A stretch of DNA of 64,000 bases from a virus. Both the position numbers and the translations under genes were made by a program. The notes under the pieces were generated by a model. It was not told where the DNA came from. It worked only from the letters and a program-made list of their open reading frames with translations, and searched no databases. This document shows, piece after piece, positions 14,179-54,283 of the stretch (position 1 is the first letter of the stretch; every line of letters starts with the position of its first letter). The DNA is taken from positions 14,575 to 78,574 of IMG/VR virus record IMGVR_UViG_3300010373_000005; one strand, written 5' to 3'.

Positions 14179-14426
14179 CACTCGCTCCTCCTGTAGTAGA
14201 GAAAAGTATGCCTCGACACCTCGTAGAACCACCCTCCCGCGTCCCTGAACCAGCCCTCGAACGGCGGCTGGTCCTCTCCCCCGCCGAACGCGTAGTGCAC
14301 CTCGACGACTTCGCCGGACTCCAGCATCACGTCGTAGTGCACCACGCGGGTGTCCCTGCCCTCAGGCATGGCCTCCGCGAACCACCAGTGGTCGGGACCG
14401 CACGGAGATGTGTCGCTCCAGGGCAT
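14178..14426 (-). CDS. hypothetical protein (82 aa)
   Basis: Track ORF. Trp-rich; no motif recognised. Confidence 0.45.
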   Translation of the reverse strand: MPWSDTSPCGPDHWWFAEAMPEGRDTRVVHYDVMLESGEVVEVHYAFGGGEDQPPFEGWFRDAGGWFYEVSRHTFLYYRRSE

Positions 14427-17389: not shown

Positions 17390-17418
17390 ATTATACCAGA
17401 CCTATCGCCTCTTGTCCA
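17390..17418 (-). promoter_or_regulatory. sigma70-like promoter: TGGACA-N17-TATAAT
   Basis: Minus strand: -35 TGGACA (17413-17418), 17-nt spacer, TGG-TATAAT (17390-17395). It overlaps the 3' end of the GT4 gene. Confidence 0.55.
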
Positions 17419-19623: not shown

Positions 19624-19768
19624 TCCAAGCCCTCCTGAGCTTCTCTAGGGCCCGCTTCTCCGCCAGCTGCACCGTGCGCCGGGTCATCGGGTGGCCCCTC
19701 CTCGTCATCTCCGCGGCCACGTCCGCATGGGACATAGCATAGTGTCGCTCGTCCAGCGAGCCGCTCAT
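19583..19768 (-). CDS. small sigma-70 region-4-like HTH protein (61 aa)
   Basis: MSHADVAAEMTRRGHPMTRRTVQLAEKRALEKLRR resembles a sigma region 4.2 / LuxR-type HTH. The 3' end overlaps the next gene by 41 nt. Confidence 0.4.
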   Translation of the reverse strand: MSGSLDERHYAMSHADVAAEMTRRGHPMTRRTVQLAEKRALEKLRRAWNEDHDGDGAEHRT

Positions 19769-20100
19769 CCCTGCTTCTCCAGTCTGGCTATGGCGCGCTC
19801 GATTCGTTTCTTCTCGACCCGCCTGCGCATCTCCGGGGTCAGGAGGTTCGACGACTCCGCGTCCAGCCTCACCGTGCCGTCCTGGTTAATGAGCGGGGCC
19901 GGCAGGTCAACGCTGACTCGGGATGGGTCTAGCACTGCCAGTGCGCGGTGAGCATAGAACGATGACATGTCGTCGTAGAACTTAGACAGTCTCCCACGAG
20001 TCTCCGCGAGCAGCTGCTCCTCTGTGAGGTCGCTCTCTCGCATCAGGCGGCGGATCTCCGCCTGGTGCTCCGACCAGTCAGGCCACTCGATCGAGGTCAT
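19765..20100 (-). CDS. hypothetical protein (111 aa)
   Basis: Track ORF with a 4-nt overlap to the downstream gene. Confidence 0.5.
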   Translation of the reverse strand: MTSIEWPDWSEHQAEIRRLMRESDLTEEQLLAETRGRLSKFYDDMSSFYAHRALAVLDPSRVSVDLPAPLINQDGTVRLDAESSNLLTPEMRRRVEKKRIERAIARLEKQG

Positions 20101-20101
20101 G

Positions 20102-20242
20102 TCAGCAGCCCCACTTGCAGATGTCGATCTCGTGTCTCAGCAGACCTTCGACCTCAACCGGATGCTGGCACCACACCGCGTACAGCATCTTCATGGCCAT
20201 TAACTGGTTAAGTATCTGGCGCATGGTGCTCTTGCTTATCAT
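20102..20242 (-). CDS. possible small protein (46 aa, below the track cutoff)
   Basis: My own translation gives MISKSTMRQILNQLMAMKMLYAVWCQHPVEVEGLLRHEIDICKWGC. GGAAGAGG SD. Its stop lies 1 nt before the next start. It sits between promoter 20284-20312 and the next gene. Confidence 0.35.
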   Translation of the reverse strand: MISKSTMRQILNQLMAMKMLYAVWCQHPVEVEGLLRHEIDICKWGC

Positions 20243-20255
20243 GCCTCTTCCTCTA

Positions 20256-20266
20256 TACGAGTGATG
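20256..20266 (-). promoter_or_regulatory. conserved leader motif CATCACTCGTA
   Basis: Plus-strand tacgagtgatg, 14 nt upstream of ATG 20242 and about 18 nt downstream of the -10 box. Confidence 0.5.
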
Positions 20267-20283
20267 ACTAGTGACGTCTACCT

Positions 20284-20312
20284 ATTATACCTACTCTTGG
20301 TCCTCCTGTCCA
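20284..20312 (-). promoter_or_regulatory. sigma70-like promoter: TGGACA-N17-TATAAT
   Basis: Minus strand: -35 TGGACA (20307-20312), 17-nt spacer, -10 TATAAT (20284-20289). Confidence 0.55.
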
Positions 20313-20318
20313 GCCTGA

Positions 20319-22373
20319 TCAGCCTTCCTGGCTGTCAGTTCCCTTGGAGTCTCCGCCCAGCAGCTTGCCGAGGATGCTTCTCAGGTCGCCGATGTCGTTG
20401 GCCATGCGGCGCTTGTCGATGACTCGCTCCCTGACCTCCTGGTCGATGGTCCCCATGATGATGAGGTCGGTGCATCTCACCGGGCGCCTGGTGCCTCGCC
20501 GGTGGGCCCTGTCCTCCGCCTGGGACCTCAGCACTGACGACCAGCCCTGGCTGAAGAAGATCACGCGGGTCACGTCTGTGGGGATCGACTCGTCGCCGGG
20601 CGGGTGGCCGATGAGGTTAAGGCCGGTGCCGCCCGCGGCTGGGTTGCCGAGGAAGACGCGACACTGAGGGTCATTATTAAATGACCACTCAGCGGCGCGT
20701 CTGTCATCGTCGCCCGTGTTCCCCGTGAACACCACGTGCCCGATGGATTCTTGCGACAATCTCTCGGAGATCGTCGCGATGTCCTCCATGAAGCATGCCC
20801 ACACGATCATCTTCTCGTCCTCGCCGAGCGGCTCGATCAGGTCGTCGTCGTCCTCGAACCCCTTGATCTGCTGGACGAGCGCCTCCACCTTCGGGTTGGG
20901 CGTGATCCGCTGTATCGTCTTGGGCACCACCATCTCGCCGGTGTCGAGGTCCACGATCGGGTCGAAGCTGACGAAGCCTGACGTGATCTGCGCTAGGCGC
21001 AGGAGCTTCACGAGGATATTGTTGGCGTTAACTGTCTTGGTCTGGTCCGCCATGTCGTCCTCGATCTCGATCAGTAGCTTGTTCTTCATCATCTGGTAGA
21101 ACTGCCGCTGCTCGGTTGTCATCTCCACGTCGACGAAGTCGTAGGTCTTCTTCGGCAGGTCGGGCAACGCCTCTGCCTTCGTGACGATGAACGACATGCG
21201 TGCTAACCTGTCTCTCAGGAACGGCAAGTTCTGGACGTCGACCATCCGCCGCCCACCGTCCGCCGAGATCTGGAACACGCCGTAGAAGTTCTTGAAAGCC
21301 TCGAAGTTGCTGAACCCCGAGCCGCCCTCGCGCATGAACTCGAACAGTGAGTACAGGTCGACCGGCGTGTTACACACTGGCGTGCCGGTCAGCACGCGTC
21401 TCCTCTCGGAGACGTCGCGCAGCTTGAAGGCGAACCTGGCCCGCTTCGTCTTGGGCCACTTGATGAAGTGTCCCTCGTCCAGACCTGCCAGGTGCCACTT
21501 GATGATGGACAGGTACTGCCACATGTTGCTGAGTAATTCATATGACGAGATGAACGTGGTGTAGCGCTGGCCGGGCCGCGCCTGGATGCCCTCCAGCAAT
21601 AATCTGACGCGCTCCCCCTCCCATCCCTCGAGGACGATCACCCTGCCGTCGACCTGCGAGAACCGCTGGATCTCCGACGCCCAGTTGTGCCTCACGTTCT
21701 TCGGGGCGATCAGCAGTGACTTGAACAGCTGCTGCTTCTTGGGCAGGTGGGAGCGGTCCTTCGAGGCCTCTCGGTCGATCTCCTCGACGACGCACAAGGT
21801 CTTCCCGGTGCCTGGCACCATGAAGTACCCGTAGCCGTCTGCACGCCTGGAGTTCATGGTGGCGACGACCTGGTGGAGCATCATGGGATTCTCGCCCATA
21901 GTGAGCCTCGGGACGTCGCAGTACTCGAAGCCGTCGCCGAGAGCTTCCAACTCGTCCTGGAGGGAGAGGTCACCTTCGGTGATCCTCTTCCTCAGGTCGT
22001 TCCGTCTCTCGCAGTACTCGTGGTACTTCGCCGCGCGCTCCATGTCCTTACGCTGCTGCTCCATGGTCTTCGACCAGTAGTCGAGGGCGATCCTCGCCTC
22101 GTCACTCGCCTCGAGTTGACTCGCGGGCCACAGTCCCGTGATCACCATCACGACGGCGTCAGTCACCGGTACGTGGTAGTGATTACCGAGCGAGCCGATC
22201 TCCTTCTTCTGCGGCAGCCGCTTGACGATCGCCTTCGCAGCTCCCGACACGTTCCACGCGGGGTCTCGGTAACTGAGTAAGAGATCGAAGTCCTTACCGT
22301 CGTCCGTCAGTTTGAGGCTCATCCTGTCTGTCGCCGGTATCCTCGGGGCGTTCTCCAGTACCTTGTCGATCAT
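20319..22373 (-). CDS. SNF2-family DNA/RNA helicase (684 aa)
   Basis: Motif I FMVPGTGKTL, motif II LDEGHFIK, and C-terminal helicase block VFLGNPAAGGTGLNL ... SQAEDRAHRRG. Confidence 0.9.
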   Translation of the reverse strand: MIDKVLENAPRIPATDRMSLKLTDDGKDFDLLLSYRDPAWNVSGAAKAIVKRLPQKKEIGSLGNHYHVPVTDAVVMVITGLWPASQLEASDEARIALDYWSKTMEQQRKDMERAAKYHEYCERRNDLRKRITEGDLSLQDELEALGDGFEYCDVPRLTMGENPMMLHQVVATMNSRRADGYGYFMVPGTGKTLCVVEEIDREASKDRSHLPKKQQLFKSLLIAPKNVRHNWASEIQRFSQVDGRVIVLEGWEGERVRLLLEGIQARPGQRYTTFISSYELLSNMWQYLSIIKWHLAGLDEGHFIKWPKTKRARFAFKLRDVSERRRVLTGTPVCNTPVDLYSLFEFMREGGSGFSNFEAFKNFYGVFQISADGGRRMVDVQNLPFLRDRLARMSFIVTKAEALPDLPKKTYDFVDVEMTTEQRQFYQMMKNKLLIEIEDDMADQTKTVNANNILVKLLRLAQITSGFVSFDPIVDLDTGEMVVPKTIQRITPNPKVEALVQQIKGFEDDDDLIEPLGEDEKMIVWACFMEDIATISERLSQESIGHVVFTGNTGDDDRRAAEWSFNNDPQCRVFLGNPAAGGTGLNLIGHPPGDESIPTDVTRVIFFSQGWSSVLRSQAEDRAHRRGTRRPVRCTDLIIMGTIDQEVRERVIDKRRMANDIGDLRSILGKLLGGDSKGTDSQEG

Positions 22374-37819: not shown

Positions 37820-38038
37820 CTAACATGTCGGGTCTTCTCCTTCGTTAGTGACATTCTCGTCTGGTACCACGTCGCACGACGACGGGTCCACCCACCTCCA
37901 CTTCCCGGCCGCGTCCTTGAAGTGACCGCGACCGTCCTTGGACACGAACTGCACGCGCACCTTGGTGGGCCTGACGGCCCGATCCTCTATCTGCGTGGCC
38001 ACGTACCACGTGCGCTCACTTAGCATCAGTACAGGCAT
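37820..38038 (-). CDS. hypothetical protein (72 aa)
   Basis: Track ORF. The start is uncertain (38038 or 38026). Confidence 0.4.
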   Translation of the reverse strand: MPVLMLSERTWYVATQIEDRAVRPTKVRVQFVSKDGRGHFKDAAGKWRWVDPSSCDVVPDENVTNEGEDPTC

Positions 38039-39002
38039 TGCTTCTCCTCTGCATCAGGGGTGACCGTGGCGACCACTCCAGCGCGGGCCTGAGCTTGTTG
38101 CAGCACGCCCTGAGCAGGTCGGTCCCCATGCCGCCGAGCGCCTGCGCGCGAGCCTCGACCTCGAGCGGGTTGCCACCGTGGCGCAGGAGTGACTCCAGCT
38201 CGACCGCAAGCTTGACCGAGTCGAGCGTGTCGTCGAGCTGCCAGCCGTGTGGGACCTCTGTTGAGGTTCCGCTCGCCAGGGCCTCCCGAGCTCTCGTCTC
38301 GTTCCGCGCGTACAGGTGCATGCTGCCGACCTGGTGGTGGTACTCTCCCACCTGGAGGCCAAGCTCGCAGGCCACGACCCGCTGCAGGCACGTAAAGGCA
38401 AACACGTCGTACGGGAACCCGAGCCACGCGTCGTTCGAGCGCATGGTCGTGACGATGTGGAGTGCCCCGTCGCGGGCCAAGAACTGCAGGCCGAGCGTAC
38501 ACGGCACGTCCGCGCACCCGCCTGACTCAGCGACTGACAAGTCGTGTGGGTCCCAGAACTGGAGCACAGCCTGCCTGGAGAGCGAGGACTTCCTGAGCAT
38601 GTCGACGATCCGCTCGAGCGCGGGTCGGTCGTCAGGCACCTGCGACGTGCCACTGAAGTCAGTGGTCACGTCCCAGGCCGCGAACATCCGCGGGCCGTAC
38701 GCGCCGTACGCCGTGCCGTCCTGCCTGCGGTACTTGACATAGCTGGGGGCGTATTTCTCGATCATCTCCGTGCTGCCCTCGCCCGACATGTACCAGAGGA
38801 ACTCTGCCGCCGCGTACGACGGCGAGAGGTTCCTGACATCGTTCGTGAGGAACGTCCGCTGCTTGCTGGCGTCCAGCACGCCCTTGTACCCGACGACCTC
38901 ACCGCACACTGGGCCGTCACGAGAGTCTCTATTATTTGCGCAGTTCAGGAGCACGAACAGTAGGTGCTCCCACATGTTGTCGATGCTGTCGTAGATGCTC
39001 AT
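38016..39002 (-). CDS. ThyA-fold pyrimidine C5-modifying enzyme with the cytosine-type Asp: putative dCMP hydroxymethylase (or dCMP methylase) (328 aa)
   Basis: Gap-free alignment by eye to E. coli ThyA: [38 protein letters not shown] versus VPCTLGLQFLARDGALHIVTTMRSNDAWLGFPYDVFAF. The catalytic Cys, R-S and D are conserved. ThyA Asn177 is replaced by Asp, as in T4 gp42 (Asp179). ATGA overlap with the upstream gene. Confidence 0.75.
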   Translation of the reverse strand: MSIYDSIDNMWEHLLFVLLNCANNRDSRDGPVCGEVVGYKGVLDASKQRTFLTNDVRNLSPSYAAAEFLWYMSGEGSTEMIEKYAPSYVKYRRQDGTAYGAYGPRMFAAWDVTTDFSGTSQVPDDRPALERIVDMLRKSSLSRQAVLQFWDPHDLSVAESGGCADVPCTLGLQFLARDGALHIVTTMRSNDAWLGFPYDVFAFTCLQRVVACELGLQVGEYHHQVGSMHLYARNETRAREALASGTSTEVPHGWQLDDTLDSVKLAVELESLLRHGGNPLEVEARAQALGGMGTDLLRACCNKLRPALEWSPRSPLMQRRSNACTDAK

Positions 39003-40276
39003 GCTATCTCCTTCCACTTCCTGATGAGCCGGCCCGTCTTCGGGTCGACGTTGAACCTATGACACTGCTCCTGGCACTCTGCCGGGAACCTACCGATGTC
39101 GAAGTCTCGCGGGTAGTACTGCGTGACGTCGATAACCTTCTCGTCCTGACCAGACGTGTCCTCGCCCTCGAACACACCGCGTACGTGATCGTACCGGGTG
39201 GACCAGTCCTCGGTAGGCCCACCCCACTCGTCCTCCAGGCACTTCCTGCACATCTCCGCGATCCAGGTGGCCACGTCCGGCACGACGCCCTTGGCGATCT
39301 GGCTGAACGGGTCTGGCCCTACCGGTATCTCGCCCCTCCATCCCATGATGTCGGCCAGCTCGCCGACCGTGCAGGGCCGGTGCCACCACGGGTGGAGCAG
39401 CCTGCAGCAGGAGTTGGTGAGCGTCGGGGCCGCGCACATCCACGCCGGTCGGTGCACCCCGTGCATGCTGAACGGCATGTCTGACATCCGCTCGTCCCAC
39501 TTCGCCTTGAAGGCCGGTGACAGCTTTTCGTAGTCGTACTGCGCCAGCGTGTTGGCGTCCCACCCGCTGGCCATGTGCGGCAGCGAGTGCCACTCGTCCG
39601 CGGTCAGTTGCAGGTACGAGTCCTGATCGTACCCCCCGTCCCTGATCATCGGCAGCGGGTCGACGACATTGCACTCCCGGTGTCGCCTCTCGGAGATCGC
39701 GTCCCACAGCATCGGAGCGTGCTCCAGCATCGGCGGCAGGTCGACGTTGAACTGCCTGTCTCTGGGGTAGGCCACCTGGAAGTACCGCTTGCGATTCTGC
39801 GCGTTACCGAAAGTCCGGGCGTTCACGAACACGTGCGCGACCCGGTAGCCGTTCTCGATGAATCTTCTAGTAAAAGAATCCACGAGGGGCTTCCCTGTGC
39901 GGTAGGCCTGCTGGACAGACTCCCACACGATGAGCGAGAACTCGTAGGCCAGCCCGTAGTCGACCAGCTCCTTGACGTCCTGGCACTGCCTCGCCTCGGG
40001 GCCGTGACCGGTAGAGGACAACCCCGCCGTCACGTTCGAGAACGCGGTACATCTTGGATTGCCGTAGAGCACGTCGATCCTGCCGTGACCCAGTGCCACT
40101 GGCGCGGGCCACGCGCAGGCTCCATCAGCCGGTCGGATCACTGGCACCTTCCAGACCTTCTCCACTGTGTCGTCGCCCAGCCCGTGCACCTCCAGCTGGG
40201 CCTTCACGTCGAACACGTCCTTGAAACCTGCGGTCATCCCGCCGGCGAACACGTGGCATCCTAGTGCCTTGATCAT
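38999..40276 (-). CDS. DNA (cytosine-5)-methyltransferase-like protein with variant catalytic motifs (425 aa)
   Basis: Motif I HVFAGGMTAGF; motif IV GNPRCTAFS (usual PPC becomes PRC); motif VI IVWESV (usual ENV becomes ESV); motif VIII FGNAQNRKRYF. Confidence 0.65.
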   Translation of the reverse strand: MIKALGCHVFAGGMTAGFKDVFDVKAQLEVHGLGDDTVEKVWKVPVIRPADGACAWPAPVALGHGRIDVLYGNPRCTAFSNVTAGLSSTGHGPEARQCQDVKELVDYGLAYEFSLIVWESVQQAYRTGKPLVDSFTRRFIENGYRVAHVFVNARTFGNAQNRKRYFQVAYPRDRQFNVDLPPMLEHAPMLWDAISERRHRECNVVDPLPMIRDGGYDQDSYLQLTADEWHSLPHMASGWDANTLAQYDYEKLSPAFKAKWDERMSDMPFSMHGVHRPAWMCAAPTLTNSCCRLLHPWWHRPCTVGELADIMGWRGEIPVGPDPFSQIAKGVVPDVATWIAEMCRKCLEDEWGGPTEDWSTRYDHVRGVFEGEDTSGQDEKVIDVTQYYPRDFDIGRFPAECQEQCHRFNVDPKTGRLIRKWKEIA

Positions 40277-45854: not shown

Positions 45855-46192
45855 GTCATGGCTCCTTCAAGTGATTGTGGGCCCATCTCCACTTCTCTGT
45901 AGTCGCGGATGTCGTCCCGCGCGTCCCAGATCAGGGCACGCGCCGATCCCCACTCTGCCACTACGGCAGCCACCATGGTGATCAGCGCAGTCATCCTGCC
46001 AGACAGTATGAGGTAGTCCTCAGAGTGGTCGAAGCCGAGGTTCTTGAGCTTAGCCACTACCCTCACCTGGAACTCAGCCGAGAAGGGATTCGGGTGCATG
46101 CTGACGTGGTCGTACATGAGCACAATCTGCCCGAACTTCTCTGCCTTGTCGGTGGGCAGCGACGTTGGTTCTAGTAAGAATGCGCGACTCAT
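45851..46192 (-). CDS. hypothetical protein (113 aa)
   Basis: Track ORF. It is the first gene after promoter 46216-46244 and has a GGAGG SD. Confidence 0.5.
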   Translation of the reverse strand: MSRAFLLEPTSLPTDKAEKFGQIVLMYDHVSMHPNPFSAEFQVRVVAKLKNLGFDHSEDYLILSGRMTALITMVAAVVAEWGSARALIWDARDDIRDYREVEMGPQSLEGAMT

Positions 46193-46215
46193 GAAGACCT
46201 CCGAATGATAGGTCT

Positions 46216-46244
46216 ATTATAACAAGTGCTAGGACAGTTGTACA
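46216..46244 (-). promoter_or_regulatory. sigma70-like promoter: TGTACA-N17-TATAAT
   Basis: Minus strand: -35 TGTACA (46239-46244), 17-nt spacer, TGT-TATAAT (46216-46221). It overlaps the 3' end of the last island gene. Confidence 0.55.
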
Positions 46245-47134
46245 CCATCTTCACGTCTTTTTTGAAAATATTCCTGAACTTTCCGCCTGAAGGCCTCCGG
46301 CGCTGTCAGCGACCACTTGAGCAGGCCCTGCTCGTCGTTCTCGACGTGCTCGCGCGGGCTGAAGCCAGGAAGCATGAGCCTGCGCCCGCGAGTGTCTCTG
46401 TCCTGAAGAGATCCGTGGTGCATGTGTACGATCGAGCCCATGACGAACCCGAATGACAGCAACTCGCCGTTCGCCCAGCGGCGCACGTCGTTCTGCACCG
46501 TGCTGCCTACCTCCGACGTCCGGAACGGGTCGACGCCCGTGAAGGCCCTGAGCATCAGGGTGTCACCGTTGCCTGTGACGGCCCGGTCGTACAGCCTGAA
46601 GCCACGCCTGAGGTGACTCGCGCGCATCGCCCAGGCCATGCCGGGGTGACTCTGCGCGAAGTCGCACCACATCTTGGCGTACGTCGACCAGTGCCAGCCC
46701 GTGGACTTCACGGGCGTCGTGATCCTCTCGTCAGAGTCCGTCAGTGACGCGTCGCTGAACATCTGCACGACGTCGTATCGTTCCAGCTCCCTGAGCGTGT
46801 CGGCCTCCCACCTCGGATTGACGAAGATCACGTCCGCGTCGACCCACGCGACGGCCGTGACCTCCGGGTCTCGCAGTGCCTTCGCGAAGCCAACGTTGAG
46901 CAATGCCTCCTTCTGCCACATCCAGTTCTCGGCTCGGGTGCCACGGAGCGTCGTCCAGGCGTGCAGGCCTCGGCTGATGACGTCATTGTCATTGACACTG
47001 ACGTCATCGTCGAGGACTAGTTCCACTATGTGTACCGGCCTGTCGATGACGTGCAGGAACCTCTTCAAGTTCTCGACGGGTCGCCGGTACTGGCACGGGT
47101 TGAAGTGACACGCTACCACAGCTAGCTTCGGCAT
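46229..47134 (-). CDS. GT-A-like nucleotide-sugar transferase (301 aa)
   Basis: AVVACHFNPCQYRRPVENL N-terminus and AWVDADVIFVNPRW (DxD-type) motif. The family was not identified by search. Confidence 0.5.
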   Translation of the reverse strand: MPKLAVVACHFNPCQYRRPVENLKRFLHVIDRPVHIVELVLDDDVSVNDNDVISRGLHAWTTLRGTRAENWMWQKEALLNVGFAKALRDPEVTAVAWVDADVIFVNPRWEADTLRELERYDVVQMFSDASLTDSDERITTPVKSTGWHWSTYAKMWCDFAQSHPGMAWAMRASHLRRGFRLYDRAVTGNGDTLMLRAFTGVDPFRTSEVGSTVQNDVRRWANGELLSFGFVMGSIVHMHHGSLQDRDTRGRRLMLPGFSPREHVENDEQGLLKWSLTAPEAFRRKVQEYFQKRREDGVQLS

Positions 47135-47766
47135 CGCGCCTCCTGCCAGGAGAGCTTCTCAGGAGAAGTCTCCTCGCCGGGGAGCGACACGAACTTGGCA
47201 CGTGGGCGCTGGCACTCGTGCGGCACTGCCTCCCAGAAGTACACGGCCAGCGACTTCCTGAGCACGCCCGGAGGGCACGGGATGGGTCGTGGCACACCGT
47301 GGTAGGAGAAGTCGTTCGTCTGGAACGCGACCAGCCTGTTACGCCTGGGCAGCACGCTGGCCTGCTTCTTGCCCTCCCAGAACTCGAGCCCACCGCCCCA
47401 CTCTGCCGACCACTCGCCGACGAAGAGCACGAGGTTGAGGGCCCGCCTGAAGCCGGTCCTCGGGTGCACGTCGCAGTCGAGATGCAGGTCGAGCACCCCG
47501 CCCGACGGCATCGCGTGCATGCCACCGCCGTGCAGCGTCTCGTCTGTGGTCAGTCCCGCGGGGCAAAGAAGCTGCAGCTGGGCAAGAAGGGAAGCACATA
47601 CGGGTGGTACTGCCTTATTAGCCGCGAGCTTTCGCTCGCCAGGGCTGTCGTACTTGACCCACCCCTCCCAAGACTCGTCCGGAAATTCCTCCGAAGCTTG
47701 AGCGACCAGTCCGGCATCGAGCGCCCCGTCGTAGACATCCCAATAGAAGTCATCGCCTCCCGCCAT
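47122..47766 (-). CDS. 2OG-Fe(II) oxygenase, prolyl-hydroxylase-like (214 aa)
   Basis: Track ORF 47122..47880 trimmed to ATG 47764-47766. GGVLDLHLDCD (HxD) ... GGGLEFW ... NRLVAFQTNDFSYHGV (distal His) ... RKSLAVYFW (Arg). Confidence 0.7.
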   Translation of the reverse strand: MAGGDDFYWDVYDGALDAGLVAQASEEFPDESWEGWVKYDSPGERKLAANKAVPPVCASLLAQLQLLCPAGLTTDETLHGGGMHAMPSGGVLDLHLDCDVHPRTGFRRALNLVLFVGEWSAEWGGGLEFWEGKKQASVLPRRNRLVAFQTNDFSYHGVPRPIPCPPGVLRKSLAVYFWEAVPHECQRPRAKFVSLPGEETSPEKLSWQEARCRS

Positions 47767-48479
47767 GACTCGAAGAGGGGCCAGACCCGCTCCCTCCAGT
47801 ATGGCAGGTCGTACGGGTTGCGGTCCCCCTGCTCGAACAGGCATGCCGTCTCCTTCCTCGTGAAGTGCCTCGAGGGCCATATCTCTACTCCATGTGAGTT
47901 CTGATCAATTTCCTCCCAGTCTCGCGACCGGACTGCCTCGTTGTCGAACCAGAAGAACGTGCCCGAGTAGTGCCACGGCACCACCTGCTGCACCCCGCTG
48001 AAGTAGCACTGCGGGCGTCGGAAACACCCGGCCATGTGGTGCTCTTCCATGGCCGCGTCTAGTAATTTAGGCCAGTCCAGGCACACGTGCGTCATGACGT
48101 CGACCCACAGCCTGACAGACTCGTAGCACGCCTGCTGGTGCGTGTGCGTGACTCCCTTCGCGTGACAGTAGAAAGTCCTGCCCGGCTGGTCGACTACGGC
48201 GCGCACCAGCGGACGCCACGTCACCACCTCCCTGAGCTGCGGGTCGTTGTCGTAGATCTCTATCTCCGCGTCGGGAGGAAGCTCGTCTGCCACCTCCTGC
48301 GGGTCGGCCGTCTCGACCGTTATGTCTTCGGTGACAACCACGGGCTCGGCAGACGTGACCACTGCGACGACCTTCTTCCCGTCGAACTGGTCCCAGCGCT
48401 CCGCCAGCATGCGCAGCAGGCGCTGCCACTCGGAGCTGGTCTTCACCGGCCAGACGTGAACCAGGAGATGACTCTTCAC
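47550..48479 (-). CDS. conserved unknown, island paralog 1 (309 aa as read to its stop)
   Basis: GTG 48477-48479 forms a GTGA overlap with the methyltransferase stop. Paralogous to 50622..51332 (FDGKKVVAV, FYCHAKGVTH, WHYSGTFFWF, GVEIWPS). The reading frame continues about 80 codons past the paralog's end point and overlaps the oxygenase gene by 217 nt. Confidence 0.6.
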   Translation of the reverse strand: MKSHLLVHVWPVKTSSEWQRLLRMLAERWDQFDGKKVVAVVTSAEPVVVTEDITVETADPQEVADELPPDAEIEIYDNDPQLREVVTWRPLVRAVVDQPGRTFYCHAKGVTHTHQQACYESVRLWVDVMTHVCLDWPKLLDAAMEEHHMAGCFRRPQCYFSGVQQVVPWHYSGTFFWFDNEAVRSRDWEEIDQNSHGVEIWPSRHFTRKETACLFEQGDRNPYDLPYWRERVWPLFESWREAMTSIGMSTTGRSMPDWSLKLRRNFRTSLGRGGSSTTALASESSRLIRQYHPYVLPFLPSCSFFAPRD

Positions 48480-49003
48480 AGGCTGCACTCCTCCACCCGG
48501 AGGTGGAACCTGTTCTCGTGCCTCGTCCTGGGAAGCCACGTCATTATGTCGAGGTCACTCCACTGCCTGAACAGCGGGTTGGCACGCGCCATAGGGAACC
48601 AGTAGTCGTCGCAGCCTGGCTCGATGCGCTCGATGCGCAGCCTGCGCGGGTATCCCCCGAAGAAGATCTGCGGGAATACGTCGCTCATGTGACGAAAGAA
48701 GTTGATCGACACGACGCCCTCGTGGCCGATCACCATGGCCATCTCGCTGGTCGCGTCTGGGCACCGGATCTCGACGGTAGCTCCTACCTTGCAGACGCGG
48801 GCCACCTCGCGCAGGAACGTGATAGGGCACCTGACGTGCTCGATGCAGTGGCTGGAGTACAGCTGGTCGACGGACGCGTCCTCGAACGGCCACGGGGTGT
48901 CGTTAAGGTCGTGCACCATGTCGGCGCACGCCAGCATGTCTACGTTCACGAAGCCCTCGCCCCTGGGCCTGTCACCGCCGCCTATCTCGATCTTGAGTGT
49001 CAA
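48476..49003 (-). CDS. class I SAM-dependent methyltransferase (175 aa)
   Basis: LKIEIGGGDRPRGEGFVNVD (motif I) ... FEDASVDQLYSSHCIEHV ... VCKVGATVEIRCP (Methyltransf_11-like order). Confidence 0.7.
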   Translation of the reverse strand: MTLKIEIGGGDRPRGEGFVNVDMLACADMVHDLNDTPWPFEDASVDQLYSSHCIEHVRCPITFLREVARVCKVGATVEIRCPDATSEMAMVIGHEGVVSINFFRHMSDVFPQIFFGGYPRRLRIERIEPGCDDYWFPMARANPLFRQWSDLDIMTWLPRTRHENRFHLRVEECSL

Positions 49004-49031
49004 CGCTCACCTCCTGTATATGCTTGATCCA

Positions 49032-49991
49032 TCACGGAAACTCCCGATGCCTGGGGCCTTCGACATCCCCTGCCACTATTGCTAATGCTTTATTGAATTC
49101 ATGAAGACGACAGCAGTGCTGACACTCCGGTATGACGTCGACGCCGTTCCTGACCATGTCGCACCGGCGCTCTCCGAGCCATATCTCGTCGAACCTCTCG
49201 TCGTGCAGGTTACCGAACGTGAAGGCCTCCTGACCTCGGTGGTACGCGCACACGGATACACTACCATCATGCCAGACAAACGGAATAATCCTATGACCAT
49301 GACATTTAGGATACTCGTGAGGCTTGAGATAGTCCTTCCACTTATAAGAAGTAGACTCGATCTCGACTCCGCAATTCACGTACTCCTCCAGCCATGTCGG
49401 GAATGTCACTGGCTGCTGCAGCGCGACGTTGTCGGCCAGGGCGGGCCTGAACTGGAAGTACGCCACGCCCGCGCCGATGGCCTCGTCCAGCATCCTCCTG
49501 CACTGGTCCTGGTTGTCGTTCGTCAGGTTGAAGTTCACCCCGACGTGCGTAGCCCTCGCGTACTCCGCCACGTACTTGGTCAGCACGAACTTCTCGGTGA
49601 CGGTGACCCTGATCCACTCCAGCCTGTCTGGACGCGCTATCCGCCTGTACGCGTTGGTGAACATCCCCTGCTTCAGCCCCAGCCGGTGCGCGTAGGCGAT
49701 CGCATGGTCTATGCCAGAGTACTCGCACGGGTCACCGCCGCCGGTCCACGTCACGGACTGCGAGCCCATCATCCGCATGTCGTCCAGAAGGCCAAGCAGG
49801 TAGTCGAGCTGCAGCTCCTCGCGGGAGTGGTGGCCCTTACGCGCAGATGCGACGTAGAAGCACCATGGGCACTCAGCGCCGCAGTGGTTGGTCGGGCTAA
49901 CCTCCACCGAGACTGGAGCCTTCTTCCAGTTATCGAGCACACCGGAGTGCACGAGCAGCTTCAGCTGCGGGTCGAACTGGGTCGTATGCAT
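49032..49991 (-). CDS. radical SAM enzyme with a Cys-rich C-terminal (SPASM/twitch-like) extension (319 aa)
   Basis: SPTNHCGAECPWCFY (CxxxCxxC), TWTGGGDP (GGE-like), and C-terminal CAYHRGQEAFTFGNL ... RRCD ... PECQHCC. Confidence 0.8.
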   Translation of the reverse strand: MHTTQFDPQLKLLVHSGVLDNWKKAPVSVEVSPTNHCGAECPWCFYVASARKGHHSREELQLDYLLGLLDDMRMMGSQSVTWTGGGDPCEYSGIDHAIAYAHRLGLKQGMFTNAYRRIARPDRLEWIRVTVTEKFVLTKYVAEYARATHVGVNFNLTNDNQDQCRRMLDEAIGAGVAYFQFRPALADNVALQQPVTFPTWLEEYVNCGVEIESTSYKWKDYLKPHEYPKCHGHRIIPFVWHDGSVSVCAYHRGQEAFTFGNLHDERFDEIWLGERRCDMVRNGVDVIPECQHCCRLHEFNKALAIVAGDVEGPRHREFP

Positions 49992-50007
49992 GATAGGTAC
50001 CTACCTC

Positions 50008-50625
50008 TCACCCGTGCACCATGATGTGACCGCTGACGTGCGCTCGCCTGTTAGTCTTCTTCATCATCTCTGCCACGTGCTTGCCGTCTGCGGTCTCCCC
50101 GAAGTCCGCGTACGGCGTGGACTCGACCAGCTTCCTGCGCGCCAACCACCCGCCTATGCCGATACTGCCCTCTTGCGGAATCGCCGTAAACGGCTTCCAG
50201 TTGGCGTGGTTGTGCACGAAGTTGCAGAAGACGAAGTCTGCCGACTTCTCGATGGCTTCTGAAAGAAGCCATTCTAAATATACCGGGCAGCACCAGTCGT
50301 CGTCTGCGAAGCCTCCGACCCACTCGCCGGTGCACCGCGTCCGCTCGTACAGGTCGCGTATCGGGTAGCCCCACTGCCCCACGTGCCTCGGGTGCTCCTC
50401 GAAGGTGAACCGTGGATCGCTGTCGATGCTGGTCTTCAGTACGGAAGACCAGTCTCTGTCAGCGGGACCGTCGTGCGCTACGAGCACCTCGAAGTCCTCG
50501 TGCGTCTGGGCGCGCAGGGCCCACAGCAGCGACACGAGCTGTCGGTGCCTGTGATGCGTCACGATGACCAGCGATACCTTGTTACCCGGCGGGATGACCC
50601 GCGTCTTCCAGTGCGTGAACCTCAC
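50008..50625 (-). CDS. GT2-family (GT-A) glycosyltransferase (205 aa)
   Basis: This is the C-terminal part of track ORF 50008..50994. GTG 50623-50625 forms a GTGA overlap with the upstream stop. VSLVIVTHHRHRQLVSLLWALRAQTHEDFEVLVAHDGP and FADDDW (DxD). Confidence 0.7.
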   Translation of the reverse strand: MRFTHWKTRVIPPGNKVSLVIVTHHRHRQLVSLLWALRAQTHEDFEVLVAHDGPADRDWSSVLKTSIDSDPRFTFEEHPRHVGQWGYPIRDLYERTRCTGEWVGGFADDDWCCPVYLEWLLSEAIEKSADFVFCNFVHNHANWKPFTAIPQEGSIGIGGWLARRKLVESTPYADFGETADGKHVAEMMKKTNRRAHVSGHIMVHG

Positions 50626-51332
50626 CCTGTCATGCACAGCGAGCCCTCCACTGACCTGCGCCAGCACTCGAGGCTGGGCGTTATGGTACTGTCCCACTCG
50701 CGTCGGTCGTACAGCTGACCCGCGTTGGCCCGCTCGTAGAACAGGCAGAACGCCTCTTCTCGCGGGAAGATGCCCGGCCATCCCTCGACGCCCATGAACG
50801 TCTGGTGCACATCGCGCCAGTTGAGCGACCGGGCACGCTCGTTCCTGAACCAGAACCACGTCCCGGAGAAGTGCCACCCGTGGTCTCGTATCCCGTCGGC
50901 CATGAACGCGCCGCAGACGTGCTTGCCCGAGCTGAACGCGCACTCGACCAGCTCGGGGTACTCCAGGCACGCTGCAGCCATAGCCTCGCGCCACAGGTGA
51001 GGGGCCTCACGCGGGCTCTCGTGCGTGGCGCCCTTGGCGTGGCAGAAGAACGTGATCCCTGGCTGGTCGATGACCTGCTCTAGAGCAGGGAGGAAGTATC
51101 TCGTCTCGCGCAGGTTCGGGTCGTTCTTGCCTAGCATGAACTCCGTGTCGGTGCTGAACGCGCGCAGCGAGTCGACCACTTCCGCGTGTTCCACGCAGCA
51201 CTGGTCGGTGGCCACGGCGATCACCTTCCTGCCGTCGAACTGGTGCCAGTGCCGTGACAGGTGCTCTGCCGTGCGGCGCCAGTGCCCGTTCTTTCGCGGG
51301 TAGAAGTAAGCTATCAGGTTGCGCTGGAGCAT
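50622..51332 (-). CDS. conserved unknown, island paralog 2 (236 aa)
   Basis: Track ORF 50622..51380 trimmed to ATG 51330-51332 (TGATG overlap with the upstream stop). This start aligns with the GTG start of paralog 1. Confidence 0.6.
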   Translation of the reverse strand: MLQRNLIAYFYPRKNGHWRRTAEHLSRHWHQFDGRKVIAVATDQCCVEHAEVVDSLRAFSTDTEFMLGKNDPNLRETRYFLPALEQVIDQPGITFFCHAKGATHESPREAPHLWREAMAAACLEYPELVECAFSSGKHVCGAFMADGIRDHGWHFSGTWFWFRNERARSLNWRDVHQTFMGVEGWPGIFPREEAFCLFYERANAGQLYDRREWDSTITPSLECWRRSVEGSLCMTG

Positions 51333-51718
51333 CAGTACCTTCTTTGCTTGCGTGTGATCCACCTGGTAAACGTCGGACACGGGTTGGGCAACAGTGGACA
51401 GTAGTAGTTAAGCCATGCCTTTCTGGAGCCGCACCTACAACCAGGCCAAGGTCTTACCTTATTGAGAGTGATAATCGTTATAGCTATTGCGACTATATCT
51501 CCTAGTCCAAGAGACCAGACACCTGGCACCGCGTCTACGCACGGGGCTCCCCCAACTTGCTCCCAATGATTGTAATATCCCAAGTTTGTCTTGCACAATG
51601 AATGCCCATGCGCGTTCAATGTGCAGCCTATGCGAGAGCAATAACCAGGCTTCTCGCACGCGCACGGCGTGACGTGCGTAGCTGCCTCTAATACATTATC
51701 ACAAGGCGTGCAGCTCAA
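51332..51718 (-). CDS. Cys-rich protein with one TM-like segment (128 aa), low-GC
   Basis: Track ORF 51332..51829, with the start placed at TTG 51716-51718 (TTGA overlap with the upstream stop). About a dozen Cys residues. LGLGDIVAIAITIITL followed by GCRCGSRKAWLN. Confidence 0.45.
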   Translation of the reverse strand: MSCTPCDNVLEAATHVTPCACEKPGYCSRIGCTLNAHGHSLCKTNLGYYNHWEQVGGAPCVDAVPGVWSLGLGDIVAIAITIITLNKVRPWPGCRCGSRKAWLNYYCPLLPNPCPTFTRWITRKQRRY

Positions 51719-52461
51719 AACGTCACCGTAGCTGTGTGAGCTGGGCACGCGATTCCATGTGTCGTCGCACAGTTTGGGGCTGGGTTTGGTAGTTGCCCAT
51801 ACGTGAATACCACATTGAATGGGCTGCACGAGCAGCTAGTCTGCGAGTACGCGCATGCAGCTGGATAGCTGACCCCTTGGCACGCCGGAAAATTGGCAGG
51901 GCTCATACACCCGTAGCACGCGAATGAGCACACGCATGGCGGAGGACCGAGAGTGTCAAGTATGGAGACACTGAGCGTCCAATGTGCACACCCGGTGGCT
52001 CCTGCCAATCCCGATGTACATGTGAATGTGTAGTTTACATAGCATATAGAACCGGTCAGAGGCCCTATCCAACCGAAGCCTGGAGGGTTATGACGAGTGT
52101 CTGCGTTCGACCACGAGAACGGGTCTCCCGCCTTGTTGTTTATCAAAGCTATAGTCTGTCCGCTTGTCAGTGCGTCACAGTTCCCGTTGGCAGATAATGT
52201 CAGATGCAGAGTGCTGGGCAATCCTACGCCAGGACAGCACGCGTTCTGTATACCAGAGATACTGCTCGATGCTGCCGCGGCTCCGCACGTGCAGCACGAC
52301 GCGCTTCCTGCAGGGTCCCTCCAGATCTTCTTCCAGTTGCGTGGGTCGAGTCGGTCGCGCCACAGGCGCAGCTTGTTGTCGAGGTCTGACTCGTCGTGCC
52401 AGAACCTGCGCTCGGGCAGACGCGAGGCCCTCGGTGCTCGTAGGGGTATGAGCGATCTCAT
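51715..52461 (-). CDS. Cys-rich protein (248 aa), low-GC; possible fibre-associated or receptor-binding component
   Basis: Track ORF immediately downstream of the fibre gene. About 20 Cys residues, several in CxC/CC clusters (PPCVCSFACYGC, SCSCS). Confidence 0.5.
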   Translation of the reverse strand: MRSLIPLRAPRASRLPERRFWHDESDLDNKLRLWRDRLDPRNWKKIWRDPAGSASCCTCGAAAASSSISGIQNACCPGVGLPSTLHLTLSANGNCDALTSGQTIALINNKAGDPFSWSNADTRHNPPGFGWIGPLTGSICYVNYTFTCTSGLAGATGCAHWTLSVSILDTLGPPPCVCSFACYGCMSPANFPACQGVSYPAACAYSQTSCSCSPFNVVFTYGQLPNPAPNCATTHGIACPAHTATVTF

Positions 52462-52474
52462 TCCAACACCATTG

Positions 52475-54283
52475 TCATTGCGAGTGGAACCAGTCTATTA
52501 TCCACTGCTTGCCGGCCTTGCGGAACTTCACGCCGCACACCTTGCCGGCCTTCACCGTGCAGCTCGTGTAGTTCGTTACTGGGTTGATCGTAGTGCTGCT
52601 GGCAGTGCCCAGGTTGGTGCCAGTGTATATCGTCAGCGTCCCGGTGCCGTCAGGCGCCACGTCTGCCGTGGTCTGACCGAAGCACTCGTAGTCAGGGTCC
52701 TCCACCTCGTAGTCCACCTTGGCCTGACACACGCATATCCGGTACGTGGTCGACGGAAGGCACACCCCATACCGGATGTTAGCGTTGAGCGTGAGTCCCG
52801 TGTCCGTCTCAGCGTCCACCGTCCCGTTGAAGATCTTGAAACTCTGCGTGGCGGCGGGCCCGACGACTGGGCTGCTGCTCACGAGCTGGCCGACGACTGT
52901 AAGCTCTGGGTCTATCACCTCGAACTGCTTCGGGCCCCACACCAGCGTGTACGTCTCTCCAGTGAAGACCAGCCCGTCGCGCAGGTACGCTAGCGTGGTG
53001 ACGCCCGTGGACGTCTCAGCCCCGATAGTGCCGGAGTAGATAGTGGCCGTGAGGTTGTTGCCGGCCTTGTACGCGGTGATGCTGCCCGTGGCGGAGAATT
53101 GCGCGTACACCGCTGTCTCTGGGTCCAGCACCTCCCACCCTCCGGTGGTCCATCCGAGGGTGTACACCACGGTAGTCACAACGGCGCCTCGTCGCACGAA
53201 CGCGTTCACGGTGGGACTGCCTGTGACCGGAGACTCAGAGCCCATGGACCCGTCGTAGATGGTTGCCGTCCCGCTGTTCCCTGCTGCCACGGCCCCGCCC
53301 AAGAACTGGGCGAAGCACAGCACGTGCGGGTCGAGCACGTACATGGCACCGAGCGCGTCGAACCCGATCTGGTAGTTCTTCCCGAACAGGCAGATCCCTG
53401 CCGCGACATTCACGCCCGTGACGGTGAACGGGGTACCAGTCCCGTTGGCCACCGTGAACGAACCAGTGTTACCTGCGGTCACCCCACTTGCCGACGCCGG
53501 GGTACCCGTCATGATCTCACCGTAGGACTCGACCACCTCCCATCCGCGGGTGCCGTAGTCCCACTCGCACCTGACCCACATCCCGGCCGGGATGTTGTAG
53601 AACCTGCTGTACACGTTGGAGACGTTCGCCCCAGTCGATGTCTCGCTGCCCGGCGTGCCTGGCGCTCCAGTGTAGACCGTCACCCTGCCGGCAGCGCCCT
53701 GCCCTATGGCGTCGAGCGTCTGGCCGACGAACTGCAGCATCTGCTCAGACACTACGGCCACGTAGTGCCTCGTGGTGTCCGTCACGCCAAGGACTATGAA
53801 CCCTCCGGTGTTCTTCTTGAGCAGGTTGGTCCCTGACCGCGGGCCCCAGCACTCTCCCGCCGCGGGAGTCCCGTCCCCACTGTCGTATGCCACTACGTAC
53901 GTAGGGCCCTTCTGGGCCCTGCCGGAGGTCTGGTGCTTGATGCCTGATGGTCCCGCGACGAAGAAGTCCGCCTGACACCCGTAAACGTCCGGCTGCTTGG
54001 TCTTTGGGAGTACTCGCGGGGCGCTCCCGTTCACACCGTTGGCCAACATCACACCGAACGCCGGGCAGTCCGCGCTCGCCTCACCGTTGAACACGAGCTG
54101 CCATGGGGAGGCATTCCGCAGCGAGGGTCTCTGCACGTCGGCGAACTGGTCGCTGTAGTTCGTGCGAGAGGCCGGGTATCCGTCCGACTTGCATATGTCG
54201 ACCATGCCGTTGTACGTCGACAGGTCGACGTATGAGTCCGACTCTCTCGCTGATCGCAGCTTGTCGCGTGAATTGTTGTGCAT
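52475..54283 (-). CDS. tail fibre / side-fibre protein built from about six tandem ~60-aa repeats (602 aa)
   Basis: Recurrent module G-T-(A/L)-T-I-Y-x-G-x-x-G-x-E-(T/S)-x-T-G ... Y-x-L-x-W ... W/F-E-V-x-D-P-E. Its position is after the tape-measure and distal tail genes. Confidence 0.55.
   Translation of the reverse strand: MHNNSRDKLRSARESDSYVDLSTYNGMVDICKSDGYPASRTNYSDQFADVQRPSLRNASPWQLVFNGEASADCPAFGVMLANGVNGSAPRVLPKTKQPDVYGCQADFFVAGPSGIKHQTSGRAQKGPTYVVAYDSGDGTPAAGECWGPRSGTNLLKKNTGGFIVLGVTDTTRHYVAVVSEQMLQFVGQTLDAIGQGAAGRVTVYTGAPGTPGSETSTGANVSNVYSRFYNIPAGMWVRCEWDYGTRGWEVVESYGEIMTGTPASASGVTAGNTGSFTVANGTGTPFTVTGVNVAAGICLFGKNYQIGFDALGAMYVLDPHVLCFAQFLGGAVAAGNSGTATIYDGSMGSESPVTGSPTVNAFVRRGAVVTTVVYTLGWTTGGWEVLDPETAVYAQFSATGSITAYKAGNNLTATIYSGTIGAETSTGVTTLAYLRDGLVFTGETYTLVWGPKQFEVIDPELTVVGQLVSSSPVVGPAATQSFKIFNGTVDAETDTGLTLNANIRYGVCLPSTTYRICVCQAKVDYEVEDPDYECFGQTTADVAPDGTGTLTIYTGTNLGTASSTTINPVTNYTSCTVKAGKVCGVKFRKAGKQWIIDWFHSQ

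Follow-up and report, generated by a model that had tools for sequence, protein, structure and literature searches.

What does a phage do with a run of sugar-handling and radical-chemistry enzymes that lies between its tail-fibre genes and its replication genes? The question is raised by a 64,000-nucleotide stretch of virus DNA (positions 14,575 to 78,574 of IMG/VR virus record IMGVR_UViG_3300010373_000005), here referred to as the window. The window is a phage genome fragment with 62% GC in which essentially all genes lie on the minus strand. Its parent is a 78.5-kb metagenomic contig, which was assembled on two independent occasions. An initial annotation, made from the sequence alone, had described an island of seven minus-strand genes, all of which are present as open reading frames (ORFs), and had proposed that their products build, tailor and attach a sugar-like group. 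Using the structure searches and the survey of related phages which that annotation had recommended, we tentatively interpret the locus as an eight-gene cytoplasmic cassette for glycan assembly and tailoring, which closes the tail (late) operon on its 3' side.

The last gene of the island, here named G7 (46229 to 47134, minus strand like all window genes described below; 301 aa), encodes a protein with a DxD motif (VDADV) and C-terminal His motifs. No Pfam, PHROG or NCBIfam profile matched it. Its AlphaFold2 (AF2) model (pLDDT 87.6, pTM 0.89) retrieved 319 PDB entries with Foldseek at E<=1e-3, with GT-A enzymes leading. Among them were the Leptospira glycosyltransferase 6p61 (3e-8), the chondroitin polymerase K4CP, the glycosyltransferase (GT) domain of LH3, B4GalT1, ppGalNAcT2 and TarP. 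D99-A-D101, H237 and H240 were invariant in 14 sequences. The best matches in BFVD, two uncharacterised viral proteins with TM-scores of 0.83-0.87, were the sole close structural relatives, and a relative of G7 is encoded in at least 383 IMG/VR loci, giant-virus bins included. Judged from its model, G7 belongs to the GT-A glycosyltransferases and represents an unnamed family rich in viral members, in agreement with the transferase call based on VDADV.

Two further genes had been recognized as mutual paralogs and left without assignment. Their paralogy is clear (36% identity, E 3e-46); the modelled structure now allows an assignment. Paralog A (50622 to 51332, 236 aa) and paralog B (47550 to 48479, a 309-aa ORF) matched no Pfam, PHROG or NCBIfam model. 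For paralog A, an AF2 model with pLDDT 75 and pTM 0.80 was compared with the PDB by Foldseek. The top 24 matches were all GT-A glycosyltransferases (E 3e-5 to 2e-3, TM-score 0.37-0.45), including dolichyl-phosphate mannose synthase (3e-5), GtrB, ColGalT1, GlcAT-P and ArnC, for which E ranged from 3e-5 to 1e-3 with TM-scores of about 0.43. On this basis paralogs A and B are predicted to be divergent GT-A-fold transferases, paralog A resembling nucleotide-sugar transferases. A DxD motif was not found in either. Its place at the end of strand beta4 is taken by C97-H98-x-K100-G101, which was invariant in 7 sequences and reads H98-A-K100 in paralog A. Since H-A-K stands where DxD would be expected, the paralogs may be metal-independent GT-A enzymes, or they may not be transferases.

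Clustering at 50% gave 1646 representatives of the paralog-A family, for which Pfam contains no model. Bacterial members of the family are large (700-1400 aa) and carry the domain fused with Glyco_trans_1_2, GT2 or Methyltransf_24. Many of the bacterial carriers are Planctomycetota; Burkholderiales, Elusimicrobia and Omnitrophota were found as well. The best bacterial matches of the paralog family came from Schlesneria and other Planctomycetaceae.

Many members of this family have an N-terminal extension of 110-230 aa, and in at least one of them (P0043) it contains the motif G.G..L..C.C..R...MN. A related arrangement (GLGD, hydrophobic helix, CxC..R...LN) is present in the product of the gene directly upstream of paralog A. 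This gene, here named orf165 (51332 to 51718), encodes 128 aa from TTG 51718, a start which agrees with the MSCC... N-termini of its homologs, and its Cys/His-rich product matched neither Pfam nor PHROG. Homologs with 39-45% identity lie directly upstream of paralog-A homologs in the related loci L146-L151 (loci are designated by L numbers throughout), and in L163 both domains form one 376-aa ORF. In view of these sequences, orf165 represents a split-off N-terminal accessory domain of paralog A. Because this Cys-rich ORF belongs with paralog A, the island is counted here as eight genes instead of seven. The orf165 product had been listed as one of two Cys-rich candidate targets; a role as Cys-rich substrate or virion protein was rejected because of the fusion in L163.

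The remaining four enzymes had been named from motifs, and each of these names was borne out by profile searches. The GT2 glycosyltransferase (50008 to 50625; 205 aa from GTG 50625, the gene caller placing the start at 50667) has the DxD sequence FADDDW. It belongs to PF00535 with 41.6 bits (cut-off 23.3, E 1.7e-10); matches to EpsD and PglI in NCBIfam were weak. The radical S-adenosylmethionine (SAM) enzyme (49032 to 49991, 319 aa) ends in an auxiliary Fe-S domain of the SPASM type (35.2 bits, cut-off 21.5, E 1.5e-8). The Radical_SAM profile itself scored 23.9 bits (E 5.3e-5), below its gathering score of 29.5, and the sequence CGAECPWC fits CxxxCxxC, so that the protein falls into the radical SAM/SPASM class. 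Weak matches to peptide maturases, heme enzymes and DesII were confined to the core region. With the NCBIfam models for peptide maturases (PqqE, SkfB, WgkB, anSME) the best score was 29.9 bits, below the equivalog cut-off of 650, and every match was restricted to residues ~20-115. Besides the counterpart in L154, homologs with 25-26% identity were found beside paralog-A and methyltransferase genes in L152 and L155.

The class I SAM-dependent methyltransferase (48476 to 49003; 175 aa, TTG start preceded by the Shine-Dalgarno sequence AGGAGG) matched Methyltransf_11 (7.5e-7) and phrog_6636 (1.8e-9). Homologs with 53-64% identity adjoin paralog-A-type genes in several phage loci. Finally, the gene at 47122 to 47766 encodes a prolyl-hydroxylase-like 2-oxoglutarate (2OG)-Fe(II) oxygenase with the motif HxD...H...R. 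It matched 2OG-FeII_Oxy_3 (PF13640) with 46.8 bits (cut-off 27, E 6e-12), and HLD as well as the later His and Arg are present. The public gene call shortens this gene to 132 aa. We place its start at ATG 47766, because the resulting 214-aa model aligns over 96-100% of its length with full-length homologs, which have 215-240 aa. Only 2OG-FeII_Oxy_3 and Oxy_4 profiles matched, and no Tet_JBP match was obtained at E<=0.1. The oxygenase was also considered as a TET-like partner of a C5-methylase-like gene of the window; this was rejected, since the protein is prolyl-hydroxylase-like, is encoded in L014, which has no such methylase, and is missing from relatives which have one.

The island enzymes have isoelectric points of 5.2-6.8 and are thus acidic to neutral. 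No 19-residue Kyte-Doolittle window above 1.5 was found in the island proteins except for a single helix in orf165 (2.03). Consequently, the island is without membrane proteins, and neither a GtrA flippase nor a GtrC-type membrane transferase is encoded. A match to characterised host lipopolysaccharide (LPS) or capsule enzymes was not obtained with NCBIfam either. With four predicted GT-A-fold transferases among the products, the earlier proposal that these enzymes make, modify and transfer a sugar-like group has gained strength; in addition, relatives of the unnamed families elsewhere adjoin NDP-6-deoxysugar and methyltransferase genes.

The genes were described initially as one chain of stop/start overlaps. 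This is exact for four junctions: TGATG at 51334-51330, GTGA at 50625-50622, GTGA at 48479-48476 and a 13-nt overlap at 47134-47122. Furthermore, the start codon TTG 51718 of orf165 shares letters with the stop codon TGA of the Cys-rich gene before it (TTGA). Overlaps thus connect all genes from the Cys-rich fibre gene through GT2, as well as the methyltransferase with paralog B and the oxygenase with G7. Gaps of 16 nt (GT2 to radical SAM gene) and 28 nt (radical SAM gene to methyltransferase gene), each with a Shine-Dalgarno sequence, interrupt the chain, and paralog B and the oxygenase are not joined by a clean stop/start overlap. Here the paralog-B ORF extends 217 nt into the oxygenase gene (47550 against ATG 47766). 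Homology to the paralog family ends near 47745, and the final ~66 codons overlap the oxygenase gene in another frame. The same overlap with the same -1 frame relation was found in L014 (2595-2853) and L154 (15018-15303), so that in the three genomes (47550-47766 in the window) the ORF continues for 56-68 codons past the end of homology. By synonymous resampling, the chance of such an open frame was 0.32, 0.056 and 0.36 in the three phages. No slippery heptamer was seen in the window's overlap when read by eye. A programmed -1 frameshift joining paralog B and the oxygenase, or a dual-coding tail, was rejected on these grounds. Since an open frame is expected by chance (0.06-0.36 per genome), the tail is treated as the result of a lost stop codon and no function is assigned to it.

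The island ends at a promoter (46216 to 46244) which starts the replication and nucleotide module and consists of TGTACA, a 17-nt spacer and TATAAT with an upstream TG. A generic sigma-70 scan found this site at 46244-46216, yet the sites it reported were as many as expected by chance (2 found, 2.0 expected). The pattern TGTAC-N17-19-TATAAT, in contrast, had two copies in the 64-kb window, where shuffles gave an expectation of 0.00; both lie on the coding strand. The copies, at 46244-46216 and 23840-23812, have TGTACA..CTGTCCT in common. An equivalent -35/-10 pair follows directly after the G7 ortholog in the five relatives L006, L013, L054, L154 and L010, although the proteins of these relatives are only 30-50% identical. 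The predicted promoter is therefore real, and this puts the island at the 3' end of a unit which also encodes the tape-measure protein, a conserved 260-aa tail protein, the fibre and a Cys-rich protein. The phage-specific motif, which can be written as TGTACA(G)ACTGTCCT...TATAAT, splits the window with its two copies into three co-directional transcription units.

Between the tape-measure, tail and fibre genes and the island no promoter-like site was found. The island follows these genes directly in one coupled chain, which is the co-location known from virion glycosylation of the mycobacteriophage type. The tail fibre (52475 to 54283, 602 aa) comes after the tape-measure protein and the 260-aa tail protein, and its N-domain is conserved next to orf165/paralog-A pairs in L147-L151. 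Immediately downstream lies the gene of the Cys-rich protein (51715 to 52461, 248 aa, 7.7% Cys) that is translationally coupled to orf165. Weak homologs of this protein are encoded between a fibre N-domain and an orf165-like gene in L146 and L148, and in L006 an equivalent Cys-rich module is fused onto the C-terminus of the fibre. The 248-aa protein is thus probably a distal fibre component. Both it and the fibre are candidate acceptors.

Comparison with related phages changed the picture of one conserved seven-gene system into that of a swappable cassette. In six to seven diverged phages the order tail genes, island, G7, promoter, gp32-like gene, primase/helicase, MazG, C5-methylase-like gene and thymidylate synthase homolog was observed. 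G7 is the sole island gene constant across them, with orthologs (29-48% identity) at the same position in L006, L010, L013, L014, L054 and L154. L154 carries a nearly identical set: a paralog, a methyltransferase (53% identity), GT2 (38%), the radical SAM enzyme (52%), a second paralog, the oxygenase (42%) and G7 (34%). L014 has a cassette of a GT-B gene, a methyltransferase, a paralog and the oxygenase. In L006, L010, L013 and L054 the cassette is non-homologous, with another radical SAM enzyme, another methyltransferase and a GT-A protein of ~260 aa, to which a GT2-methyltransferase fusion and a further GT2 are sometimes added. No homology was detected at E 1e-4 between the radical SAM enzyme, methyltransferase and GT2 of the window and those of L006, L010 and L013; as far as sequences tell, these cassettes are analogous, not orthologous.

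Parts of the cassette recur as modules. The trio of paralog, methyltransferase and oxygenase was present in at least 10 phage loci; together with the similar set of L154, this is the phage-specific co-occurrence that the initial annotation had asked for. This order, or the paralog with the oxygenase alone, recurred in at least 18 phage loci outside the group (methyltransferase up to 64% identical). The order paralog, radical SAM enzyme, methyltransferase was seen in two phage loci. Neighbours of the paralog family were counted within two genes in 40 dereplicated viral loci. These were 2OG-FeII_Oxy_3 proteins (13 members, the family being a neighbour in 13 of the 40 loci), methyltransferases (11 members), GDP-mannose dehydratases/epimerases (6), dTDP-sugar epimerases (2) and radical SAM/SPASM enzymes (2). 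The oxygenase family also neighboured the paralog-A family in 5 of 22 bacterial loci. Around G7, 23 clusters gave the same kinds of sugar enzymes and additionally tail-fibre domains and a giant-virus capsid gene. Both unnamed families thus adjoin genes for GDP-mannose 4,6-dehydratase/epimerase, dTDP-sugar epimerase, O-methyltransferase, 2OG oxygenase and radical SAM/SPASM enzymes elsewhere in viruses. From the recurring modules, the neighbouring families and the varying sets in relatives, the cassette is seen to be a mosaic of glycan-pathway modules which are swapped between relatives in the manner of surface-glycan loci.

The region 46000-52500 had no DNA match among GenBank phages. By tblastn paralog A had no match, and the single match of G7 was to a jumbo Xanthomonas phage whose gene context gave no clue. 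In the relatives L154 (11589-12344) and L147 (10783-12888) the cassettes contain or adjoin genes for proteins that have a prepilin-type N-terminal methylation motif. Together with the Planctomycetaceae matches of the paralogs they give a hint of a Planctomycetota host.

As a possible source of sugar donor, the window encodes outside the island a homolog of GT75 NDP-sugar pyranose/furanose mutases (15797 to 16936), with a full-length match to MtdL (7xpr/7yua, E 4e-67) and a match to Pfam RGP (3.2e-10). MtdL interconverts GDP-L-fucopyranose and GDP-L-fucofuranose as well as the corresponding GDP-L-galactose forms (PMC9937993). The phage therefore probably makes a GDP-L-furanose sugar donor. Because this mutase is present and both unnamed families co-occur with GDP-mannose dehydratases in viruses, the gene content suggests that the island uses a GDP-L-6-deoxyhexose or furanose donor, with which the mutase would be linked to the island. 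Huge uncultured phages and T4-like phages of Synechococcus have weak homologs of the mutase.

We infer from these data a single shared pathway. G7 and GT2, which both have DxD, and paralogs A and B would act as four soluble GT-A-fold transferases that add sugars from nucleotide-sugar donors, with orf165 working with paralog A as its detached Cys-rich N-terminal domain. The methyltransferase (O-methylation), the oxygenase (hydroxylation) and the radical SAM/SPASM enzyme (radical chemistry) would tailor the sugars or prepare the acceptor. The acceptor would be a virion protein of the distal tail, i.e. the fibre or the Cys-rich protein, and the result a variable glycan coat comparable to those of glycosylated mycobacteriophages and chloroviruses.

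Three kinds of acceptor, 5-hydroxymethylcytosine (5hmC) DNA, virion proteins and the host envelope, had been proposed without ranking. The evidence now leans to virion proteins and away from 5hmC DNA. We favour a tail or fibre protein, without much confidence, because of the position in the late operon, the coupling to fibre genes and the persistence beside fibre genes in temperate phages. The temperate L147 and L148 retain the fibre N-domain, the Cys-rich protein, orf165 and paralog A as one block, with an integrase adjoining and no thymidylate synthase homolog in view. Furthermore, fibres encoded next to the cassettes of related phages show an alternation of Cys-rich modules and very long poly-Thr/Ser tracts (L006 2016-5039, L013 1987-3876, L010 3364-4053). 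Judged by composition, these fibres are possibly mucin-like substrates of O-glycosylation. In giant-virus bins relatives of G7 and paralog A occur too, once adjoining the major capsid gene.

Several points weigh against a virion acceptor or against the pathway as a whole. Neither a Ser/Thr-rich tract nor a collagen-like repeat was found in any frame of the window, and L054 keeps a four-gene cassette with a short fibre that has neither poly-Ser/Thr nor Cys-rich modules. Because of the TM-score of about 0.43 and the missing DxD, the transferase activity of paralog A is not certain. The position next to an integrase in temperate phages would fit lysogenic conversion as well. Moreover, both late expression, read from promoter motifs, and the identity of the acceptor are what we infer. 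The further counterpoints concern DNA: G7 always abuts the replication module, in phages that all have a predicted dCMP hydroxymethylase; a deoxynucleoside monophosphate (dNMP) kinase neighbours G7 in 2 of the 23 clusters (ThyX in 1); and 5hmC is a known substrate of phage GT-A enzymes, which add mono- to trisaccharides to it (bioRxiv 10.1101/2023.12.21.572611).

Hypermodification of DNA is in our view unlikely, but it is a serious alternative and the strongest one. An oligosaccharide would be built on 5hmC that replaces cytosine: G7 would attach the sugar next to the base, the variable enzymes would lengthen and modify the chain, and the product would serve restriction evasion. Besides the points just given, the thymidylate synthase homolog (38016-39017) has Asp at the equivalents of E. 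coli N177 and L143 and retains D169. By the criteria of PMC13326640 its sequence predicts a dCMP hydroxymethylase, not a 5-hydroxy-dCMP synthase. A MazG-type pyrophosphatase adjoins it, and this hydroxymethylase module and G7 are both present in all phages of the group for which enough sequence is available. The phages RL38J1, RB69 and DLP3 even place furanose sugars made by a phage mutase on their DNA (PMC13326640).

On the other hand, the island lies on the tail-operon side of the conserved promoter, outside the replication unit. The paralog-A/orf165 pair of the temperate phages stays beside the fibre genes with no thymidylate synthase homolog in view. No nucleotide-modification family, neither thymidylate synthase nor TET included, was among the top 25 of 46 neighbour families of the paralogs in the 40 viral loci. 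G7 is no closer to a TET-associated glycosyltransferase (TM-score 0.40) than to other GT-A enzymes, and the island enzymes are not basic. In addition, a better-placed candidate for a DNA glycosyltransferase exists in the window, a GT-B-like protein of 456 aa (17402-18772, minus strand) with a weak Glyco_trans_1_4 match.

Micrococcus phage Kurnik (L226 7001-11847) has a homolog of this GT-B-like gene in its replication module, together with two other GTs, MazG and a C5-methylase-like homolog. From its gene content the Kurnik cluster looks like one for DNA modification, and the GT-B-like gene would be a better candidate for 5hmC glycosylation than the island. In the window, the segment 38016-40905 (minus strand) contains the thymidylate synthase homolog (D/D type) beside a 425-aa protein with only a partial C5 DNA-methylase match and the MazG-type pyrophosphatase. 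These genes follow the island at a distance of 5-9 kb, past the promoter; near the island no dNMP kinase was seen. A ThyX-like flavin-dependent thymidylate synthase (13237-14232, minus strand; Thy1, 1.2e-8) is encoded besides the ThyA-type homolog.

That the cassette alters LPS, capsule or a cell-wall glycoprotein of the host envelope while the phage infects or is lysogenic, and so blocks superinfection or keeps progeny from binding to debris, is improbable. The reading arises because paralog-A genes adjoin an integrase in L147, L148 and L001, because bacterial members of the family belong to multidomain glycan synthases and lie twice beside ABC-2 exporters, and because the hydrophobic helix of orf165 could bind a membrane. 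A place next to the integrase is classic for conversion genes, and GtrB, ArnC and TarP were among the fold matches. However, the island encodes no flippase, GT-C or other membrane protein, and its tight coupling is with fibre genes. The window phage also looks lytic, with nucleotide genes of the 5hmC type and no integrase among the minus-strand ORFs of at least 70 aa scanned with Pfam, and the giant-virus relatives have no bacterial envelope to modify.

Within the favoured virion reading, a more specific and quite doubtful version concerns the trio of DxD-less GT-A protein, methyltransferase and prolyl-hydroxylase-like oxygenase, which is spread over many phages, Planctomycetota, Burkholderiales and other bacteria. 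The trio would form an undescribed system in which a Pro or Lys residue of a tail or receptor-binding protein is first hydroxylated by the oxygenase and then receives a methylated, possibly furanose, sugar from the transferase. If true, it would be the first case in a bacterial virus of protein glycosylation linked through a hydroxy amino acid, and cassette swapping would diversify the glycan coat of the virion.

Least probable is a maturation like that of ribosomally synthesized and post-translationally modified peptides, in which the radical SAM/SPASM enzyme would cross-link (by thioether or other bonds) the 248-aa Cys-rich protein, and residues hydroxylated by the oxygenase would then be glycosylated. 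SPASM enzymes mostly work on peptides or proteins, the best NCBIfam and PDB matches of the enzyme were the peptide maturases WgkB, PqqE and SkfB, and the Cys-rich protein is encoded two genes upstream of the enzymes in the same coupled chain. In eukaryotes, pairs of a prolyl/lysyl-hydroxylase-type oxygenase and a GT-A enzyme modify proteins, and ColGalT1 and LH3 were among the fold matches here. Against this explanation, the maturase matches were limited to the generic radical SAM core (E 1e-7 to 1e-2), relatives with Cys-rich fibres have a non-homologous radical SAM enzyme which L054 possesses without such a fibre, and the oxygenase and radical SAM families also adjoin NDP-sugar enzymes, which fits the tailoring of sugars.

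To our knowledge, glycosylation of phage virions has so far been demonstrated in just a few actinobacteriophages, in which it alters antibody recognition. The present data suggest that uncultured phages, whose hosts are probably Planctomycetota, exchange much richer cassettes beside their receptor-binding genes, in which glycans are tailored by radical SAM, 2OG and methyl chemistry. They also define two large unnamed transferase families, with ~1,650 representative clusters for the paralogs and at least 383 viral loci for G7, and a recurrent trio of transferase, methyltransferase and oxygenase. Should the acceptor be 5hmC DNA after all, the known sugar hypermodification of DNA would be extended to glycans tailored by radical SAM and 2OG enzymes.

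A Pfam sweep of minus-strand ORFs outside the island further revealed three HNH_3 endonucleases, a GNAT acetyltransferase, an SNF2-type helicase, a Mu F-like head protein and a major capsid protein E. In the relative L006 the family A DNA polymerase (19728-20876) contains an intein, as the precomputed annotation places Pfam Intein_splicing between two DNA_pol_A segments.

Among known systems, capsid glycosylation of chlorovirus PBCV-1 involves A064R, a GT-GT-methyltransferase protein, and a GDP-mannose dehydratase encoded by the virus. The present locus shares with it the combination of viral GT-A enzymes, methyltransferases and NDP-6-deoxysugar enzymes, the latter being found around relatives of G7 and paralog A. 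It differs in that it belongs to a bacterial virus and that the window has a GT75 mutase instead of a dehydratase. The pairing of a 2OG-Fe(II) hydroxylase with GT-A transferases resembles collagen modification by LH3 and ColGalT1, and mimivirus L230 represents a system of this collagen lysyl hydroxylase/glycosyltransferase type. However, the fold matches are to generic GT-A enzymes (TM-score 0.36-0.45), and collagen-like repeats were not found in the window. With lysogenic conversion by GtrABC or TarP the island has a phage-encoded GT-A fold in common, GtrB and TarP being among the fold matches; unlike GtrABC it has no GtrA flippase, no GtrC membrane transferase and no membrane segments, and the phage appears lytic.

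Comparable as well are phage clusters for glycosylation of 5hmC or 5-hydroxycytosine (T4 alpha/beta-GT; MT/5mYOX-associated GT-A and GT-B enzymes, bioRxiv 10.1101/2023.12.21.572611; RB69, DLP3 and RL38J1, PMC13326640), since a predicted dCMP hydroxymethylase and a dCTPase-like MazG are encoded by the window phage as well. In such clusters multiple GTs can build di- and trisaccharides, and furanose donors can be made by the phage (bioRxiv 10.1101/2023.12.21.572611; PMC13326640). In contrast to them, a promoter and about 5 kb separate the island from the nucleotide genes. The island GTs also lack the R...DDD...EDY/F signature of DNA GT-A enzymes and are not specifically similar to TET-associated GTs, and the oxygenase is prolyl-hydroxylase-like, not of the TET/JBP type.

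A precedent is found in mycobacteriophages. In cluster O an O-methyltransferase and three glycosyltransferases modify capsid and tail tube, and cluster O and F phages (Corndog, Che8) have, as in the window, soluble GTs in tandem and a methyltransferase among or after structural genes (Freeman et al. 2023, as summarised in PMC11600133). An action on virion proteins was demonstrated there, whereas the acceptor proposed here follows from gene content and position. A sequence relationship to these phages was not detectable in GenBank phage DNA, and Ser/Thr-rich C-terminal tails were not seen in the window. What the island has beyond those systems is a radical SAM/SPASM enzyme, an oxygenase of the 2OG type and two GT-A paralogs without DxD. 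The initial view that no phage system of this composition had been described holds for the mix of enzymes and not for the kind of system, as glycan machinery beside structural genes of viruses (PMC11600133) and DNA-glycosylation clusters of phages (bioRxiv 10.1101/2023.12.21.572611) are both on record. Undescribed as far as we found are the combination of radical SAM/SPASM enzyme, prolyl-hydroxylase-like oxygenase, methyltransferase and four predicted GT-A proteins, two of them without DxD, together with the detached accessory domain, the recurrent trio of paralog, methyltransferase and oxygenase, and the swapping of cassettes anchored at G7.

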